40,542 bases of DNA, taken from UHGV virus genome UHGV-0192375. The stretch is one strand, 5' to 3'. How positions within the stretch are numbered: the stretch's first letter is position 1; each line of letters begins with the position of its first letter. Origin of the DNA: a virus. A model generated the notes under the pieces. It was not told where the DNA came from. It worked only from the letters and a program-made list of their open reading frames with translations, and searched no databases. Below, one piece after another: positions 32,062-39,883 of this stretch. Position numbers and translations under genes: made by a program.

Positions 32062-32262
32062 TTACCTCCGCCCGCGTGAACGCATGTTTTGCTGTGCTCT
32101 CTGCGATGAGACGAACTGAGGAAGATATGCGCTGACTAACCAGAACCGCGGATCTATATCGAGGCTTTTCTCGACGGTTACGCCATTGGATTCGTAGCGA
32201 GCTACCAGCTCATTAGCTTCTTCCGTTGTCAGTCCGGTGTGGGTGAACCAGCTTTTTTTCAT
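32062..32262 (-). CDS. Hypothetical protein (66 aa)
   Basis: ORF tightly packed in the operon; start overlaps the stop of the upstream gene. Confidence 0.45.
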   Translation of the reverse strand: MKKSWFTHTGLTTEEANELVARYESNGVTVEKSLDIDPRFWLVSAYLPQFVSSQRAQQNMRSRGRR

Positions 32263-32660
32263 TGGATGGCCCCGGATAATTTCAGATATTCAATTGCACG
32301 AGCCCGGGCGCCGGGTTCGTTGTTGAGCAGCTCACGCAGTAACTGAACGGCCATAACCGGTTCTTTACGCCCGTTAATGCGGATCCCGCGAGAGGTTCCT
32401 GGTGCCAGTGTGATAATGCGTTTTCGCTCTAATGCACGGAGGTGGGTCAGCGCTGCGTTAGGTGAAGCAACACCAAGCAGATTCGCCAGTTCCTGACAGG
32501 TTGGAGGGTAGCCATGCGTATTCACAAAATCCACGAGCAGATCCAACACTTCCTGTTGTCTCGGGGTAAGTTGTGTCTCAGGGGATATAGTTAAGCCGGC
32601 GCAGCCTGAAAGCTCGCCAGCAGGAATTGAGTTCAATTTTGTCTTGGTTGTTTGCGCCAT
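32259..32660 (-). CDS. LexA-like protein consisting only of a LexA N-terminal winged-helix DNA-binding domain (133 aa); no S24 peptidase/dimerisation domain and no Ala-Gly cleavage site
   Basis: aa 31-100 LTPRQQEVLDLLVDFVNTHGYPPTCQELANLLGVASPNAALTHLRALERKRIITLAPGTSRGIRI align closely with E. coli LexA 4-70 ([64 protein letters not shown]); GGAGA RBS. Confidence 0.8.
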   Translation of the reverse strand: MAQTTKTKLNSIPAGELSGCAGLTISPETQLTPRQQEVLDLLVDFVNTHGYPPTCQELANLLGVASPNAALTHLRALERKRIITLAPGTSRGIRINGRKEPVMAVQLLRELLNNEPGARARAIEYLKLSGAIQ

Positions 32661-32976: not shown

Positions 32977-34086
32977 TTACTCGTTTTCAAAGGTGTCAGT
33001 CACTTCTAAGGTTTCCTCGACTGAAGCGCTCTGAATTGCGGTTAAATCAGGATCGTTGTTAAGTGCTTTTTCCCGGATCTGCCCCTCAATTTCAGCAGCT
33101 ATATCGGGATGCTCGTTAAGCCAGGTGACGGCGTTATTACGGCCATTACCAAGCTTTTCACCAAGGTAGTCGTACCATGCACCTGTTTTATTTATCAATT
33201 TAAGCTTCACGCCAAGCTCAAGAATTTCATCGGAACGAGAAATCCCTTGACCGAACATGAGACGGTAGGATGCCTGTTTGAATGGTGGTGAAACTTTATT
33301 TTTGACGACTTTTATCGTGGTGTCTTTACCGGTGATCTGGTCACCTTCTTTGATGGTTCGTGATCTGACGTCGAGGCGAACGGAGGCGTAAAATTTAAGG
33401 GCGTTTCCGCCGGTAGTAGTTTCAGGATTACCGAACATGACCCCTATTTTCATGCGTAACTGGTTGATGAAAATAACGATGGTTTTTGTTTTACTGACCT
33501 CTCCCGCAAGTTTGCGCATGGCTTGCCCCATCATTCGCGCCTGAAGTCCCATCTGCGCATCCCCTATTTCACCTTCAAGCTCAGACTTAGGCACCAGGGC
33601 AGCCACGGAATCTACGACAATCAGGCCAACGGCTCCGGAACGAACCAGCGCATCTGTAATTTCAAGTGCCTGTTCGCCGGTGTCAGGCTGGGATATGAGC
33701 AAATTATCAATATCCACACCTAACTGCTGTGCATATCGGGGATCAAGAGCATGCTCAGCATCGATGAAAGCACACTGTCGGCCTTCACGCTGTGCGCTGG
33801 CAATCGCAGAAAGCGCTACCGTAGTTTTACCAGATGACTCTGGGCCGTAAATTTCAGAGATACGCCCAACCGGAAAACCACCACCCAGGGCAATATCCAA
33901 CCCGAGGGAACCAGTTGGAACCATTTCAACATTTAAATGTGAACCGTCACCAAGACGCATAATGGCTCCCTTGCCAAAGGCTTTTTCGATCTGTCCCATT
34001 GCAGCTGTGAGCGCCTTTTCTTTTTCTTCCCTTGTTGATGGTTTTGTTTTGTCGGACAGAACAGGTTTTTTCTTATCAACGGCCAT
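32977..34086 (-). CDS. recA: RecA recombinase paralog encoded by the prophage
   Basis: Full-length collinear similarity to E. coli RecA, including Walker [11 protein letters not shown]1/L2 loops and C-terminal acidic tail; GAGGAG RBS. Confidence 0.95.
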
Positions 34087-34115: not shown

Positions 34116-34150
34116 CTGTATGAATATACATACTGGATATAAAAACAGTA
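34116..34150 (-). promoter_or_regulatory. SOS (LexA) box(es) in the recA promoter: TACTGTTTTTATATCCAGTA (minus strand, 34131-34150) and the adjacent weaker ATGTATATTCATACAG (34116-34131)
   Basis: CTG-N10-CAG core with an AT-rich spacer, 17/20 match to the TACTGTATATATATACAGTA consensus; sits between a TTGATC -35-like hexamer and the RBS, as in the E. coli recA promoter. Confidence 0.7.
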
Positions 34151-34237
34151 CACCCAAAAATAAAAATGATCAACCCGCATAAAGCACTTTTTGCCAAAGC
34201 CAGTTATATGTTTCTCATGGATTTTTTTTCGTACAGA

Positions 34238-34263
34238 CATAAAAAACCCGCCTGTGGCGGGTT
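34238..34263 (-). terminator. Intrinsic terminator downstream of the C5-methyltransferase gene, upstream of the recA promoter
   Basis: Minus strand AACCCGCCACAGGCGGGTT hairpin followed by TTTTTTAT. Confidence 0.65.
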
Positions 34264-34307
34264 CTTAGTAAAGTTGTTTTGAGGATTAAAAACTAACAGC
34301 ATATGCT

Positions 34308-36191
34308 TCACGCAGCGCGTACTTTTGGCATGCATAATTCTGGCAGATTTGCCCTCACCAGCGCCTCAGCGAATGGCGGAGGAACTGCATTTCCACAACG
34401 TGCCACCTGCTTATCCTTTGCGTACTTCACGCCCCGGAAATCCTGGTCGATGATGTACCACTCCGGGAAGCCCTGCGCCCGGTATAGCTCATGCGGTTGC
34501 AGCATGCGCATGCCAATATCAACGATGCGATAAACTACCCCATCCAGCGTCACCAGGCCAGTGCTGTCCGGGCCACAATATTCGCGCAGGAACTCCAGCA
34601 CCTGCTGCGCGCGCTGCTCGTCATACCCGTCTACGGCCAGCATGGTTTTCACCTCTCCCACATGCGTGCCACCAGCGGTAATGGTCGGCATTGGCTGGTC
34701 GGTGCGCTGTCCGTCCCGACAGGTTCCACGCAGCTTCACCAGATGAGAGGTTACCGCGGCATGATGATCGACGGTTGTCACAGAGTGCATCGGTTCGTCC
34801 ATGTCCACGCCAGCGCCCTGGTAATTCCCGCCGTAGTGCTTCGCCAGGAACGCGCTCACAGTGGCGAATTTATTGCCGCCTGCCGTAACGGTACCCAGCG
34901 GGTTATCCAGTTGCAGCACGCGCGGCTCCTGCCCCAGACGTTCGCCATAGCCCATCTGAATGAGCGTGGGCATAACCAGCTGCGATTTACCGCCGCCACC
35001 AGCGGTGATTGTCGCACTTGGTTCATCTGCCCGATGTCCTACGCTGGCGCCGAACTGACGACCAACAAAAGGTGTAAGCGCGGCTTCTACCATGCCCAGT
35101 GCATGCCCGTTGCCGCCCGGACGCTTCGATGTACCTGCGGTGATCGTCGGTACCGGTTCAGTTACTTCCTGCCCGGTAGCACCCGTGCGGAACTTCGTCA
35201 GGTGCGGTACTGCGATTGCGTAGCCGTGTTTTTTTGTGATGGTCTGCAAGGGCTCATTCAGGCTCTGGCCTCTGAAACAGTCATAACCCGAACGGGTGCT
35301 GGTGTGGTTACACTTCACGATGAACGGCGTCGGATTGTCCAGGACGAAACGCTGAATTCCCCGGGCGATTCGCTTAAGCGTGTTTTCTGCCAGCGGCTTT
35401 TTACGGCCAAAAATTGACGGCGCGGCAATTGACCAATCGATGCATTCAGCAGCTGTTCGCCATGGTGCCAGCTTACCAGCCTGAACTGCTGGAGATTTCG
35501 GATCCGCGTGGGTTACTTCCGGCCAGGTCACAGGCACGCCGTCGCAGCGCATCACCATGAAGAACCGCTTCCGGATGGTCGGTGCACCAAAGTCGCAGGC
35601 GCGCAGTTCGCGGTAATCGACTGCATAACCCAGCCCGGCCACCAGCTGCTGCGCCAGCATGCCGTCGGCGGCAATGCCCAGGAACTCGCAGCACTCCTCC
35701 AGCGCCGGATGCCCGGCGGGGATACCTCCGGACAACATGCCGCAGAACGCTTCAAAGGTTTCGCCTGCGCGTTCCGGGTCCGGGCGCTGCCCACCGTCAG
35801 CCGATACGATTAGCGGACCCCACGTTTTGAACTCCTCCACGTTCTCCAGCATCATCACGCGCGGTCGCACCGCCAGCGCCCAACGAATGACGATCCACGC
35901 CAGACCGCGAATCTCTTTCTCCACCGGCTTCGAGCCTTTGGCTTTCGAGAAGTGGCGACAGTCCGGGGAGAACCACGCCAGCCCCACCGGGCGGCCAGCG
36001 GTCGCCAGCTGAGGGTTTACGTCAAACACGGATTCGCAATAGTGCAGCGTATCGGGGTGGTTGGTGGTGTGCATCGCAACGGCGTTCGGGTCGTGGTTGA
36101 TCGCAATATCCACACTGCGCCCGATAGCCATTTCAATGCCTGTACTCGCCCCGCCGCCGCCGGCAAAGTTATCGACAATAATTTCTCTCAC
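34308..36191 (-). CDS. DNA (cytosine-5)-methyltransferase, orphan, with an extended variable region carrying four repeated TITAG(G) target-recognition-like modules (putatively multispecific)
   Basis: Motif I VDNFAGGGGAS, IV SPDCRHFSKAKG, VI MLENVEEF, VIII PTIRKRF, IX/X GNAVPPPF; about 390 aa between VIII and IX containing PVPTITAGT, PSATITAGGG, PLGTVTAGGN, PMPTITAGGT repeats; no adjacent restriction endonuclease. Confidence 0.85.
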   Translation of the reverse strand: MREIIVDNFAGGGGASTGIEMAIGRSVDIAINHDPNAVAMHTTNHPDTLHYCESVFDVNPQLATAGRPVGLAWFSPDCRHFSKAKGSKPVEKEIRGLAWIVIRWALAVRPRVMMLENVEEFKTWGPLIVSADGGQRPDPERAGETFEAFCGMLSGGIPAGHPALEECCEFLGIAADGMLAQQLVAGLGYAVDYRELRACDFGAPTIRKRFFMVMRCDGVPVTWPEVTHADPKSPAVQAGKLAPWRTAAECIDWSIAAPSIFGRKKPLAENTLKRIARGIQRFVLDNPTPFIVKCNHTSTRSGYDCFRGQSLNEPLQTITKKHGYAIAVPHLTKFRTGATGQEVTEPVPTITAGTSKRPGGNGHALGMVEAALTPFVGRQFGASVGHRADEPSATITAGGGGKSQLVMPTLIQMGYGERLGQEPRVLQLDNPLGTVTAGGNKFATVSAFLAKHYGGNYQGAGVDMDEPMHSVTTVDHHAAVTSHLVKLRGTCRDGQRTDQPMPTITAGGTHVGEVKTMLAVDGYDEQRAQQVLEFLREYCGPDSTGLVTLDGVVYRIVDIGMRMLQPHELYRAQGFPEWYIIDQDFRGVKYAKDKQVARCGNAVPPPFAEALVRANLPELCMPKVRAA

Positions 36192-36940
36192 GCGTATTCC
36201 TCCATGGCGGCGGCCAGCGAACGGGCAGCAACGACAATTGACGGTACCGGCAACTTCTCAAGCCACATCCGGTTGATGTGATGTTTCAGGCGACGCTGGT
36301 GGTGTGCCGGGAGATCCCCGGCGTTTTCAATCTGGCTGTATACCATTCCGACTTCGTCAGGCCAGACGGTATCCTGCACGTCCACCAGCAGGAGGTTTTC
36401 CAGCTCGATAATTCGTTTCGTGGCGTACTGCAATTGCGGGTCAAAGTTGTCCTGTGGCTCACCGTCTTTAACGAAGGATATCCAGTGGGTTTTGTCATTT
36501 TTCCCGGTACGCTGACCAATGATTGGTTTTACATCCGTCAGCGCCAGAACCTGGCTAACTGGAATCTGAGTTTCGTTCCATTTGAAAATGAGTACACCGT
36601 GTGGCCGCAATACTCGGAATGCCTCTTTGAAACCGGCGCGCAGGTCAGAACGCCACGTTTTTTTGTTCAATCGCCCATATTTTTTACCCATCCAGGCAGC
36701 TTCACCAACTCGTTCAAGATGAGGAGGGTCGAAAACCACTACGGGGAAGGTGTTATCAGCAAACGGCAGCGCGCGAAAGTCAGCAATGAAATCAGGACTG
36801 ATAACCAGACGGCGGCCATCGCAAAGCTCATGCTCCTCACTGCGAATGTCGGTAAAGACAGCGCGAGAGTCGCATTTGTTTAACCAGAACATGCGGGAAC
36901 CGCAGCACATATCGAGTATTATTTTCTCGGACATGTTCAC
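36188..36940 (-). CDS. DNA N6-adenine (or N4-cytosine) methyltransferase, orphan
   Basis: Motif I ILDMCCGS followed by motif IV VVFDPPH; 250 aa; overlaps the start of the C5-MTase. Confidence 0.8.
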   Translation of the reverse strand: MNMSEKIILDMCCGSRMFWLNKCDSRAVFTDIRSEEHELCDGRRLVISPDFIADFRALPFADNTFPVVVFDPPHLERVGEAAWMGKKYGRLNKKTWRSDLRAGFKEAFRVLRPHGVLIFKWNETQIPVSQVLALTDVKPIIGQRTGKNDKTHWISFVKDGEPQDNFDPQLQYATKRIIELENLLLVDVQDTVWPDEVGMVYSQIENAGDLPAHHQRRLKHHINRMWLEKLPVPSIVVAARSLAAAMEEYA

Positions 36941-38353: not shown

Positions 38354-38370
38354 TGGTCAAATCTCGATTA
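38351..38370 (-). repeat. Copy 4 of conserved linker TAATCGAGATTTGACCAATG (stop of P-like gene + 14 nt + start of PerC-like gene)
   Basis: 19/20 identical to copies 1 and 3. Confidence 0.8.
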
Positions 38371-39039
38371 GTTGGTTAAACCTGCCGCTTTGCGGCGCTT
38401 GTACTCTTCCATCAGCAGCTGTGCCGGAGTTGGCCCTGCCGGATGCTGCGGTGCAGCAAGCTGGCGACGGATTGGTGGAACCGACAACCCGTTGCTCACG
38501 TGCTTCGTCCATTTGGTCAATAACTTCTCAGCGAGTTTCTTCAGTTCCCCCTCAGTCATCTGGCGCTCTACGCCAGTCCTGCGCATTTCGATGCAGATGT
38601 GGTACAAAACCGGCTGCGGCCACGGGTATTTATCACTTCCCGAAAAACGATATGACTCGCTACGCCAACGGCGGTATTCAGTCATCACCCGATCCGATGT
38701 AAGCCCGAACGGGTTAGCCCCACTCTCAGAAACCAGCGATACGAACTCAGCCAGATCAGGAGGCCATGTGTTACCTACCGCGCAGCGCTCCATGCACTGC
38801 TGGCAAACCAGTTTAATCTGGGCCTCAGTCATCGAACCTATCTGAGCTATCCAGAGGGCCGTAGGCTCTGCCCCATTCTTCTGTGTCCATCGGTTCGAGA
38901 AGATTTCCCCCATCACCTGCCATAGCCGCCATGCCGTTTCCGTCGCCATCAAGTCCGTTCCGGCGTCGCCACTCTGCGTGTGCTGATTGAATTTGCTGAA
39001 CAGCTCGGGATGCTGTTGGTTCTGATCGAACTGCTGCAT
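38368..39039 (-). CDS. Replication-module protein in the P position (putative helicase-loader/replication protein P-like; function unverified)
   Basis: Strong GGAGG RBS; directly follows, and overlaps by about 215 nt out of frame, the O-like initiator gene. Confidence 0.5.
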
Positions 39040-39883
39040 TGTCGGTACCTCCGGATTGTGGTTTTGTCTGGACCTTTGCGCGATCCAGATGGCGGGCCAA
39101 TTTTTGCTCCCACTGGATTTGATGAAAAACTTTCCCTTCGGCTTGCCAGTAAGCGATGAAACTACTCAGTTCCGCTTCAAAATTTATTCCCGCCTTCAAC
39201 GGCATCCCCCACAAAACCGCCTGACGTTCAAAATCGACTGATGGTTTCCAGGCCTGATGCATCTGGAATTTCCCGAATGATTGCTGTGGTCCAAATCCGA
39301 TACCGGGTTGGTTCGGATAATCTGGAATAGCAGGTTCGACCAGTTCGCTATGTGTGGGGTTTAGATCTTTATGGTTCCTTGGTAGATTCCGTGTCCCGTT
39401 TTTGGGACTGTTTAAAGGGAAAAACGGTACTCTTTGGTTAAAATTCGAACTATTAACAATCCCGATTTTGGTATTGTTATCCTCGTTAACAGTCCCGTTA
39501 ATGGTACTGTTCGCATTAACAGTTCCGTTATCGGGATCATTTCGTTGAACAGTCCCCTTTTTGGTACCGTTTAAACGGTACCGATTTCGGGCTTGTTCTG
39601 CATCGGGGATGCTTTCTTCAACGCCCACCAGCCTGTAAACAGGTATTTGTTTAGTCCTGCCACGCCGTTCCCCGGTGTCCACAACAAGGCCGATTTCCTG
39701 TAGATGCTGCAATCCTGCAAGCACAGTCTTTCTGTCCATCTCAGTAGCCTCTGCAAGCGCAGCGACAGATGGATAAGCGCATAAGTCAGCACCGCACATA
39801 TCAGCCAGCCAGGTTAATATCGCCTTGCTGGAAGATTTTCCGGTTTTAACTTTTTTGGCCCACCGCATTGCATCAATGCTCAT
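38825..39883 (-). CDS. Replication initiator (lambda O-like N-terminal HTH + DnaT-like C-terminal domain) containing the origin iterons
   Basis: [12 protein letters not shown]...[11 protein letters not shown]-terminus typical of phage replication initiators; C-terminal DnaT-like segment; iterons within the coding sequence; GGAGG RBS. Confidence 0.8.
39391..39570. repeat. Origin-like iterons: four direct repeats of TTAACAGTCCCGTT with 29-33 bp spacing, an inverted copy (GGGACTGTT) and a flanking AT-rich stretch inside the O-like gene
   Basis: Copies at about 39453, 39486, 39517 and 39546; they encode the N-rich NGTVN repeats of the initiator; analogous to lambda ori within O. Confidence 0.7.

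Follow-up and report, generated by a model that had tools for sequence, protein, structure and literature searches.

The window analyzed here is the whole 40,542-nt stretch of the virus genome UHGV-0192375, and the subject of this analysis is a C5-cytosine DNA methyltransferase (MTase) gene encoding an array of six short repeat modules between catalytic motifs VIII and IX. Carried by a lambdoid Enterobacter hormaechei prophage, this locus forms an orphan cassette for DNA modification in the early, nin-like region, and the array probably provides the enzyme with a broad, module-encoded target repertoire serving anti-restriction. For the stricter proposal that each module carries exactly one specificity, we consider the chances about even. 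Close relatives with cores 78–99% identical to that of the window enzyme have cleanly gained or lost single modules, conserved module types are found recombined, and homologues at 42–46% identity belong to a group for which broad, partial protection has been shown. These findings support the initial annotation, made from the sequence alone, which had proposed a multispecific anti-restriction MTase with stacked target-recognition domains (TRDs). The window enzyme itself is presumably active and beneficial against restriction, as far as its sequence tells.

The gene product matched, with 100% identity, proteins encoded on chromosome-sized contigs and annotated as "DNA cytosine methyltransferase [Enterobacter hormaechei]" and was recognized by the PF00145 profile of Pfam with 74.1 bits (cut-off 22). 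The NCBIfam dcm profile gave 53 bits; the long insert in the protein keeps this score under the cut-off of 100.65. The ordered C5 motifs were all found: I (FAGGGG, aa 9), IV (SPDCRHFS, aa 75), VI (ENV, aa 116), VIII (TIRKR, aa 205), IX (RMLQP, aa 562, within RMLQPHELYRAQGFP), and X (GNAV, aa 600). The AlphaFold2 model of the catalytic domain resembled the solved C5-MTases 3g7u, DNMT1, M.HaeIII, and M.HhaI (Foldseek E from 6e-10 to 6e-7). The gene was thus correctly recognized at the outset as encoding a 627-aa C5-MTase, while the distance between motifs VIII and IX, put at about 390 aa, measured about 352 aa. Motif IV has the form S-P-D-C-x-H-F-S (35958–35981, minus strand, aa 71–78 region), with an Asp between the canonical Pro and the catalytic Cys, and motif VIII has Thr where Gln is usual. 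In the family alignments, SPDC[KR]HFS and the Thr of motif VIII are invariant or nearly so, the experimentally active group included, and the conserved leader of the variable region stands ahead of the first module in every family member.

The sequence T[IV]TAG occurs four times in the C5 MTase (aa 349, 394, 434, where it reads TVTAG, and 503). These are the four repeats counted in the initial annotation; the number of modules had to be revised, since alignment on the motif added two diverged copies, EPLQTITKK (aa 313) and EPMHSVTTVD (aa 466). In total, aa 303–550 hold six modules of about 30–42 aa and one degenerate seventh slot (aa 518–550), as listed in Table 1. The six copies scored 21.9–37.5 bits with an independent 30-position module profile built solely from relatives of less than 55% identity, vs a maximum of 8.7 bits in 2000 shuffles of this region, and module-vs-module alignments reached z = 9 against shuffles. 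The repeat therefore exceeds chance. No tandem DNA repeat was found in the module region, and the best direct repeat at the DNA level was 45 nt long with 73% identity; the module copies are old at this level, and a recent tandem duplication was rejected on these grounds.

Table 1. Features of the modification cassette in the window (aa, amino acids of the encoded protein; bits, score with the independent module profile).
Feature	Position (nt)	Strand	Evidence or description	Sequence
Intrinsic terminator	34236..34266	(-)	Directly after the C5 stop; folding	GAACCCGCC-ACA-GGCGGGUUUUUU
C5-cytosine DNA MTase gene	34308..36191	(-)	627 aa, GTG start; PF00145, motifs, Foldseek	
C-terminal catalytic part, aa 551-627	34311..34541	(-)	Motif IX, motif X GNAVPPPFA	RMLQPHELYRAQGFP
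Degenerate seventh slot, aa 518-550	34542..34640	(-)	Ungapped alignment to relatives with C-A; AlphaFold2 helix 525-539	
Module 6, type C, aa 489-517	34641..34727	(-)	28.5 bits	GTCRDGQRTDQPMPTITAGGTHVGEVKTM
Module 5, type H, aa 456-485	34737..34826	(-)	37.5 bits	NYQGAGVDMDEPMHSVTTVDHHAAVTSHLV
Module 4, type B, aa 420-449	34845..34934	(-)	24.6 bits	GQEPRVLQLDNPLGTVTAGGNKFATVSAFL
Module 3, type D, aa 380-410	34962..35054	(-)	28.4 bits	FGASVGHRADEPSATITAGGGGKSQLVMPTL
Module 2, type M, aa 335-376	35064..35189	(-)	21.9 bits	RTGATGQEVTEPVPTITAGTSKRPGGNGHALGMVEAALTPFV
Module 1, type F, aa 303-332	35196..35285	(-)	34.6 bits	YDCFRGQSLNEPLQTITKKHGYAIAVPHLT
Conserved leader of the variable region, aa 216-302	35286..35546	(-)	Invariant or near-invariant columns in family alignments	
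Catalytic part, aa 1-215	35547..36191	(-)	Motifs I, IV (catalytic Cys78), VI, VIII; AlphaFold2 pLDDT (predicted local distance difference test) >90	
GTGA overlap	36188..36191	(-)	TGA of the 250-aa gene (36188-36940) over GTG of the C5 gene	
C-terminal four-helix domain, aa 166-250 of the 250-aa protein	36191..36445	(-)	Last 85 aa; partner unit of the C5 gene	
N-terminal domain, aa 1-165 of the 250-aa protein	36446..36940	(-)	Predicted small class-I S-adenosylmethionine MTase, LDMCCGS + FDPPH; phrog_954	

The module consensus across relatives was GGGSRGQSLDEPLGTVTAGGRHALVAAHLV. Among 279 relatives, only P12 and T15 were universal; positions 1–7, 14, and 17–23 were conserved within a module type and differed between types, and positions 8–11 were free to vary. 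Every module thus has an invariant Pro-x-x-Thr core, a hydrophobic strand, and two type-specific loops (positions 1–7 and 17–23). The core matches the position of the conserved T-L/V/I in the TRDs of C5-MTases, and the layout of two type-specific segments around an invariant Thr mimics that of M.HhaI and M.HaeIII, in which recognition involves two loops and a conserved T-L dipeptide (PMC2790894). Enzymes of the Dcm/M.HhaI/M.HaeIII type share the catalytic fold and motif order with the window enzyme; however, they have one TRD of about 80–100 aa in place of its 352-aa region with six or seven mini-modules. The seventh slot is as long as the near-constitutive terminal type-A module of relatives (PLHTVTTKDRFGLVT), lacks the P..T.T core, and has a predicted helix (DEQRAQQVLEFLREY) in its place; from alignment and model, it is read as a putative pseudo-module.

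Module types, labelled A–Z and beyond, were obtained by clustering, and in this notation the window enzyme reads F-M-D-B-H-C. Modules of the same type from different proteins were 50–62% identical, while modules of different types within one protein were 32% identical; the motif I–VI cores of those protein pairs were 60–73% identical. The type B module is conserved as far as Paracoccus phage Pyei1. The 279 relatives had 4–12 modules each (3–12 in the family overall) and formed 243 distinct module strings, most of which have F, G, or a similar type at the start and C-A at the end.

The variation is clearest among the nearest relatives. Proteins of E. hormaechei 87–99% identical to the window enzyme were 627, 659, 662, or 694 aa long and differed in length only by two clean inserts, each adding one P..T.T module: a type J module of 32 aa (…DQPMHTITTGN…) and a type e module of 35 aa (…EKPAHTILKQ…). 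Neighborhood and architecture were compared at 80 IMG/VR loci, where enzymes with cores 78–92% identical to that of the window enzyme had many different module strings, including FMeDBHC, FeDBHC, FMDBHC, FMDBHJC, FMeDBHJC, FMeDBHKC, FMeDBHJCA, FMeLDHCA, FMeBLDHCA, FDBHCA, FDHCA, and FMeDHJC. The repertoire thus appears to evolve via gain, loss, and exchange of whole modules.

The family is large and widespread. A search with the variable region only retrieved 3207 clusters (50% identity) at E ≤ 1e-3, 605 of them at E ≤ 1e-30, and relatives were present in at least 584 IMG/VR contigs. Matches to the variable region were found in 219 phage records, including phages of Gordonia, Pseudomonas, Mycobacterium, Vibrio, Aeromonas, Burkholderia, Klebsiella, and Escherichia as well as Myxococcus Mx4, Rhodobacter RcapNL, Pectobacterium ZF40, and Bacillus phi105; overall, the family was spread over phages of Enterobacterales, Rhodobacterales, Burkholderia, Vibrio, Pseudomonas, Gordonia, Mycobacterium, and Paenibacillus. 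In the phi105 record, an unannotated stretch (KY197768.1, 29416–29991) encodes a homologue of the module array, matching in two pieces at 46% identity, so that Bacillus temperate phages carry the family as well, beside the classical SPR/SPbeta type.

Several members of the family have been studied experimentally. JCM7686_0772 and JCM7686_2655, 5-methylcytosine (m5C) MTases of about 700 aa from Paracoccus aminophilus prophages, were expressed in E. coli and described as having "relaxed substrate specificity" (Dziewit et al. 2014, PMC3925955). Partial protection was reported in the cited supplement against AluI, BglI, Bme1390I, BsuRI, CaiI, EcoO109I, EcoRII, Hin6I, HpaII, HpyF10VI, MspI, NciI, PauI, PvuII, TaiI, and XhoI (PMC3925955, Additional file 8), and cleavage was complete with Bsh1236I, Bsp68I, Bsp143I, BspLI, Eco130I, FspBI, Hin1II, HinfI, MbiI, MluI, NcoI, and PamDI (PMC3925955). 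These enzymes were tied to the window enzyme via Pyei1_p05 of Paracoccus phage vB_PyeM_Pyei1, for which an identity of about 69% with the Paracoccus enzymes is reported (PMC6536676). In full-length comparison with the window enzyme, Pyei1_p05, which has 8 modules, showed 42% identity (E 1.5e-165), and ARM81ld_p31 of Aeromonas phage phiARM81ld, cited as another relaxed-specificity enzyme (PMC5537653) and built with 5 modules, showed 46% identity (E 1e-138). Motif IV in the form SPDC[KR]HFS is common to all three. All 38 full-length Rhodobacterales relatives of Pyei1_p05 had arrays of 3–11 modules (mode 8–9), those of about 700 aa having 8–9, and the tested JCM7686 enzymes are likely to have a similar number.

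The relaxed-specificity enzymes and the window enzyme thus belong to one protein family with the same repeated module and partly shared types (B, M, C, and A), and both are encoded by orphan genes that temperate phages carry, often close to their replication genes. They differ in the number and composition of modules, and the terminal A module is absent from the window enzyme. The cited passages of the "relaxed specificity" papers describe the enzymes with no mention of a repeated TRD array. The protected sites would fit about 6–8 targets of tetranucleotide class (AGCT, GGCC, CCNGG, CCGG, GCGC, ACGT, and TCGA-containing), a number that would be of about the same order as that of the modules.

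Alternatively, the array could be one large DNA-binding domain made of structural repeats with a single very short or degenerate specificity, e.g., a dinucleotide context; the modules would then add affinity or processivity, not discrete specificities, and the enzyme would still be a broad anti-restriction device. We consider this unlikely. It would agree with the gel evidence, in which protection of the homologues was partial at many sites and was taken by the authors for relaxed specificity, not discrete multispecificity (PMC3925955), and with the later summary of their activity as acting on a CC motif (PMC5537653), both as given in the cited passages. The terminal hydrophobic strand of each module could also join a common sheet, and the types at the two ends of the array, F/G first and C-A last, are near-constitutive and so recall repeat-domain caps. 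However, GCGC, CCGG, AGCT, GGCC, and ACGT were partly protected by the homologues, whereas CGCG, GATC, GGNNCC, CCWWGG, and CCATGG were fully cut; such selectivity, with GCGC partly protected and CGCG fully cut, argues against a context-free enzyme, and AGCT, GCGC, and ACGT contain no CC. Moreover, module types are kept as units in distant hosts, with their type-specific residues in two loop segments, and interior modules are gained and lost singly among near-identical enzymes, a pattern predicted by selection on the repertoire.

A further explanation, which we regard as very unlikely, is that the enzyme in effect has a single specificity: the TRD would consist solely of the module or modules beside motif IX, and the others would be pseudo-domains, spacers, or interaction surfaces, e.g., for the 85-aa partner domain described below. 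Ordinary monospecific C5-MTases do have a single P-x-P-T-[IL]-T element shortly before motif IX (example sequence in PMC11954522), and the type C and A modules at the motif-IX side are the most constant ones in the family. This explanation is hard to combine with the protection of many unrelated sites by array-bearing homologues and with the conservation of interior modules, which at 50–62% identity across phyla are retained nearly as well as the core, unlike decaying pseudo-domains; the window enzyme, in addition, has no A module and is yet intact in many E. hormaechei genomes.

Several observations weigh against a module-encoded repertoire. The gel-based reading and the CC motif have been mentioned above, and one more homologue, Phi2LM21_p23, is given as inactive in E. 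coli in the cited passage (PMC5537653). The terminal A module, near-constitutive in the family, has been lost from the window enzyme. Heavy m5C methylation would expose phage DNA to McrBC-type restriction. The array (aa 290–525) was modelled with pLDDT of only 22–57 by AlphaFold2 with a 126-sequence alignment, so that no confident fold emerged for the modules; misalignment of shuffled modules by MAFFT may have contributed to these values. A profile of 46 modules gave only chance matches in the PDB (E ≥ 0.2), and a profile of the last module together with motifs IX–X aligned to solved C5-MTases only from motif IX on. As no alignment to any solved TRD was obtained, the equation of module and TRD is a motif-level one, drawn from a short motif and the architecture. 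Finally, similarity to MtbP of Bacillus phage SPbeta was not significant by the module profile (E 0.35) or by BLASTP (E ≥ 0.08), nothing being shared beyond generic C5 motifs and core.

The last result bears on the relation to the Bacillus phage enzymes, which the initial annotation had drawn for SPR and phi3T. The multispecific C5-MTases of these phages (M.SPRI, M.Phi3TI, M.Rho11sI, M.SPbetaI/MtbP, and M.H2I; also M.(phi)BssHII) carry several TRDs on one core and protect against several host restriction–modification (R-M) systems (PMC12707154). In architecture and function, the resemblance holds: in both groups, one core bears several contiguous short units between motifs VIII and IX, the genes are orphans in temperate phages, and related phages have differing combinations of units. 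The variable region of SPbeta MtbP even contains SPTLTTMGGGH and EPAFTVNTIDRHGVAI, each with a P-x-x-T-[LV]-x-T core, one per part. Homology in sequence was not supported; membership in the SPR/phi3T/SPbeta family was rejected, and because similarity to MtbP was not significant, only the analogy is kept. The window enzyme has six modules and its family 3–12, of about 30–42 aa, while the Bacillus phage enzymes have about 2–5 TRDs each, longer at about 40–50 aa per TRD. Motif IV is SPDC in the window family and PC in the Bacillus phage enzymes, and the hosts of the window family include Proteobacteria, Actinobacteria, and Firmicutes. Inactive "pseudo" domains have reportedly been described in the Bacillus phage enzymes by the Trautner laboratory, and the degenerate slot of the window enzyme is comparable to them. 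The same strategy of an orphan phage MTase with broad targets, reported silent in the lysogen, is followed by M.EcoGII, Hia5/Hin1523, and ARM81ld_p56/PhiOS31_p25; these enzymes, however, use N6-adenine chemistry and act broadly because they are unspecific, rather than through stacked recognition modules.

Directly upstream of the C5 gene lies a gene for a 250-aa protein, and the overlap of its TGA with the GTG start of the C5 gene suggests translational coupling of the two. In the initial annotation this order was reversed, with the C5 stop placed over the start of the small MTase gene. The 250-aa protein matched phrog_954 "DNA methyltransferase" (E 1e-85), scored a marginal 22.5 bits with Methyltransf_11 (cut-off 21.2) and weakly with Methyltransf_25, and has LDMCCGS and FDPPH in gamma-like order; no sequence match for it was found in the PDB. 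Its N-terminal domain is predicted to be an amino (N6-adenine or N4-cytosine) DNA MTase, and homologues of this domain of about 155 aa were present in 267 phage records.

The C-terminal 85-aa domain of the same protein is the more constant companion of the C5 gene. It was encoded in an open reading frame (ORF) ending at or overlapping the C5 start at 40 of the 80 IMG/VR loci, all in the closer clade; these comprised essentially all loci with cores at least about 76% identical and a few others. The domain occurred alone, as an ORF of about 86–95 aa, or fused to unrelated adenine MTases, Dam (PF05869) or MT-A70 (PF05063), or to PAPS-reductase + Dam; its fusion to the small MTase, as in the window, was found at 6 loci. 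The stand-alone gene P0496 was followed at 6 of 8 genomic places examined by a PF00145 gene of 624–659 aa with a 4-nt overlap. At the other two (Citrobacter/Enterobacter; L094 3755–5637 and L089 3755–6088), the C5 gene was split into two ORFs or uncalled, which suggests occasional inactivation in lysogens, possibly from toxicity or McrBC-type conflict. In the enterobacterial clade, to which the window belongs, the partner always lies directly ahead of the C5 gene and overlaps it, whereas it was not found upstream at the more distant loci.

A conserved pairing of the small MTase with the C5 MTase, as in gp20/gp21 of phage ZF40, was considered and rejected, since it was present at only 6 of the 80 loci and the 85-aa domain is the constant element. 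In ZF40 (L006 2472–5098), gp20 is a small MTase of the type seen in the N-terminal domain of the 250-aa protein but has no 85-aa tail, and it overlaps by 4 nt with gp21, a C5 MTase of 717 aa with multiple modules; a third MTase, gp27, lies 2.4 kb downstream. The 85-aa domain was modelled by AlphaFold2 as four helices (pLDDT 80.5), with no significant fold match in the PDB (best Foldseek E 2.5) and no Pfam hit. Judging by synteny alone, it probably serves the C5 enzyme as an accessory or adaptor.

That the C5 gene is a decaying or inactive prophage remnant appears extremely unlikely to us. The degenerate terminal module slot, the Asp between Pro and Cys in motif IV, the split or uncalled C5 genes at two of the eight places of the stand-alone partner gene, and the one homologue inactive in E. 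coli would point that way; yet the ORF is intact, identical or 96–99% identical copies are present on many E. hormaechei contigs, and SPDC[KR]HFS is invariant throughout the family, including the experimentally active group, with the remaining catalytic motifs intact.

In the proposed mechanism, the cassette would be expressed from the early rightward operon during lytic growth, with the C5 gene translationally coupled to the upstream protein bearing the amino-type MTase and the 85-aa helical domain. Each functional module would offer its own pair of recognition loops to DNA at the shared catalytic cleft, so that a single enzyme would methylate C5 of cytosine in several different short targets, and the upstream amino-MTase would contribute a second modification. 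Lytically replicated progeny DNA would then be pre-protected against multiple type II systems.

Gene order on the minus strand is as follows: cII-like gene, O-like initiator, P-like helicase loader, small ORFs, small MTase, C5 MTase, and terminator are followed by recA, a LexA-like repressor gene, an HNH gene (phrog_96), a Q-like antiterminator, two holins, endolysin, terminase, and portal. The cassette thus lies between the O/P-like replication genes and the Q-like antiterminator, which makes its position nin-like, as had been proposed. No restriction endonuclease gene accompanies the small MTase or the C5 MTase in the window prophage, in agreement with the earlier description of both as orphans. 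The cassette is closed by a strong terminator, whose hairpin directly after the C5 stop (34242–34266) has a folding free energy (dG) of -16.2 kcal/mol and z of -5.2. This terminator escaped the consensus scan; it was recognized on visual inspection, and folding then confirmed it.

Other features of the region concern replication and the SOS response. The phage recA gene (32977–34086, minus strand) is full-length and encodes a 369-aa protein (Pfam RecA, E 1e-130). About 45 nt upstream of it, an SOS-box-like sequence TACTGTTTTTATATCCAGTA (34131–34150, minus strand) has one mismatch to CTGT-N8-ACAG, and a repressor-like gene (phrog_362, 133 aa, 32259–32660) lies downstream. From these sequences, the prophage seems to carry its own SOS-regulated recA. 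The ORFs of the O-like initiator (38825–39883) and the P-like loader (38368–39039) overlap by 215 nt (38368–39883, minus strand), and both match phrog_15931, a family of 482 positions; probably the true start of the P-like gene is further downstream, or O- and P-like genes are fused in some phages.

Multispecific phage C5-MTases as a kind are already known, and so is broad protection by members of the family of the window enzyme. Multispecific cytosine MTases have their place in textbooks as anti-restriction devices but, to our knowledge, have been characterized in detail only in a few Bacillus phages, in work of the 1980s–1990s. The window family is larger than, and unrelated in sequence to, these enzymes and follows the same principle with more and smaller modules. 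In the literature searched, which left REBASE aside, no description was found of the module array, of the way its modules fall into types and vary like cassettes, or of the 85-aa partner, although absence there is not proof. The partner protein lacks annotation, its genomic association is clear, and Foldseek found no fold relative for it in the PDB. Since m5C is poorly seen by PacBio sequencing, the activity of the family is largely invisible in current methylomes.

No new principle is involved; the family is a large, overlooked, and experimentally tractable system for learning how C5-MTases read DNA, in which natural single-module variants are a direct handle on how about 30 aa specify a DNA target. 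A further-reaching view, possible in our opinion but doubtful, is that the family is a natural combinatorial library of dozens of cassettes of about 30 aa, 3–12 per enzyme and thus far above the number in the Bacillus phage enzymes, with one short target each and with the 85-aa partner, in some cases fused to interchangeable adenine MTases, required in the enterobacterial clade. If it were true, mapping module types to motifs would give a recognition code of cytosine MTases and a route to programmable multi-site methylases, and the partner could bring in a second MTase or determine which cassette is used at the catalytic site. For the hosts, the family may shape phage host range and the transfer of prophages among clinical Enterobacter, Citrobacter, and Klebsiella strains, and it may affect how well phage therapy works against strains with many R-M systems.

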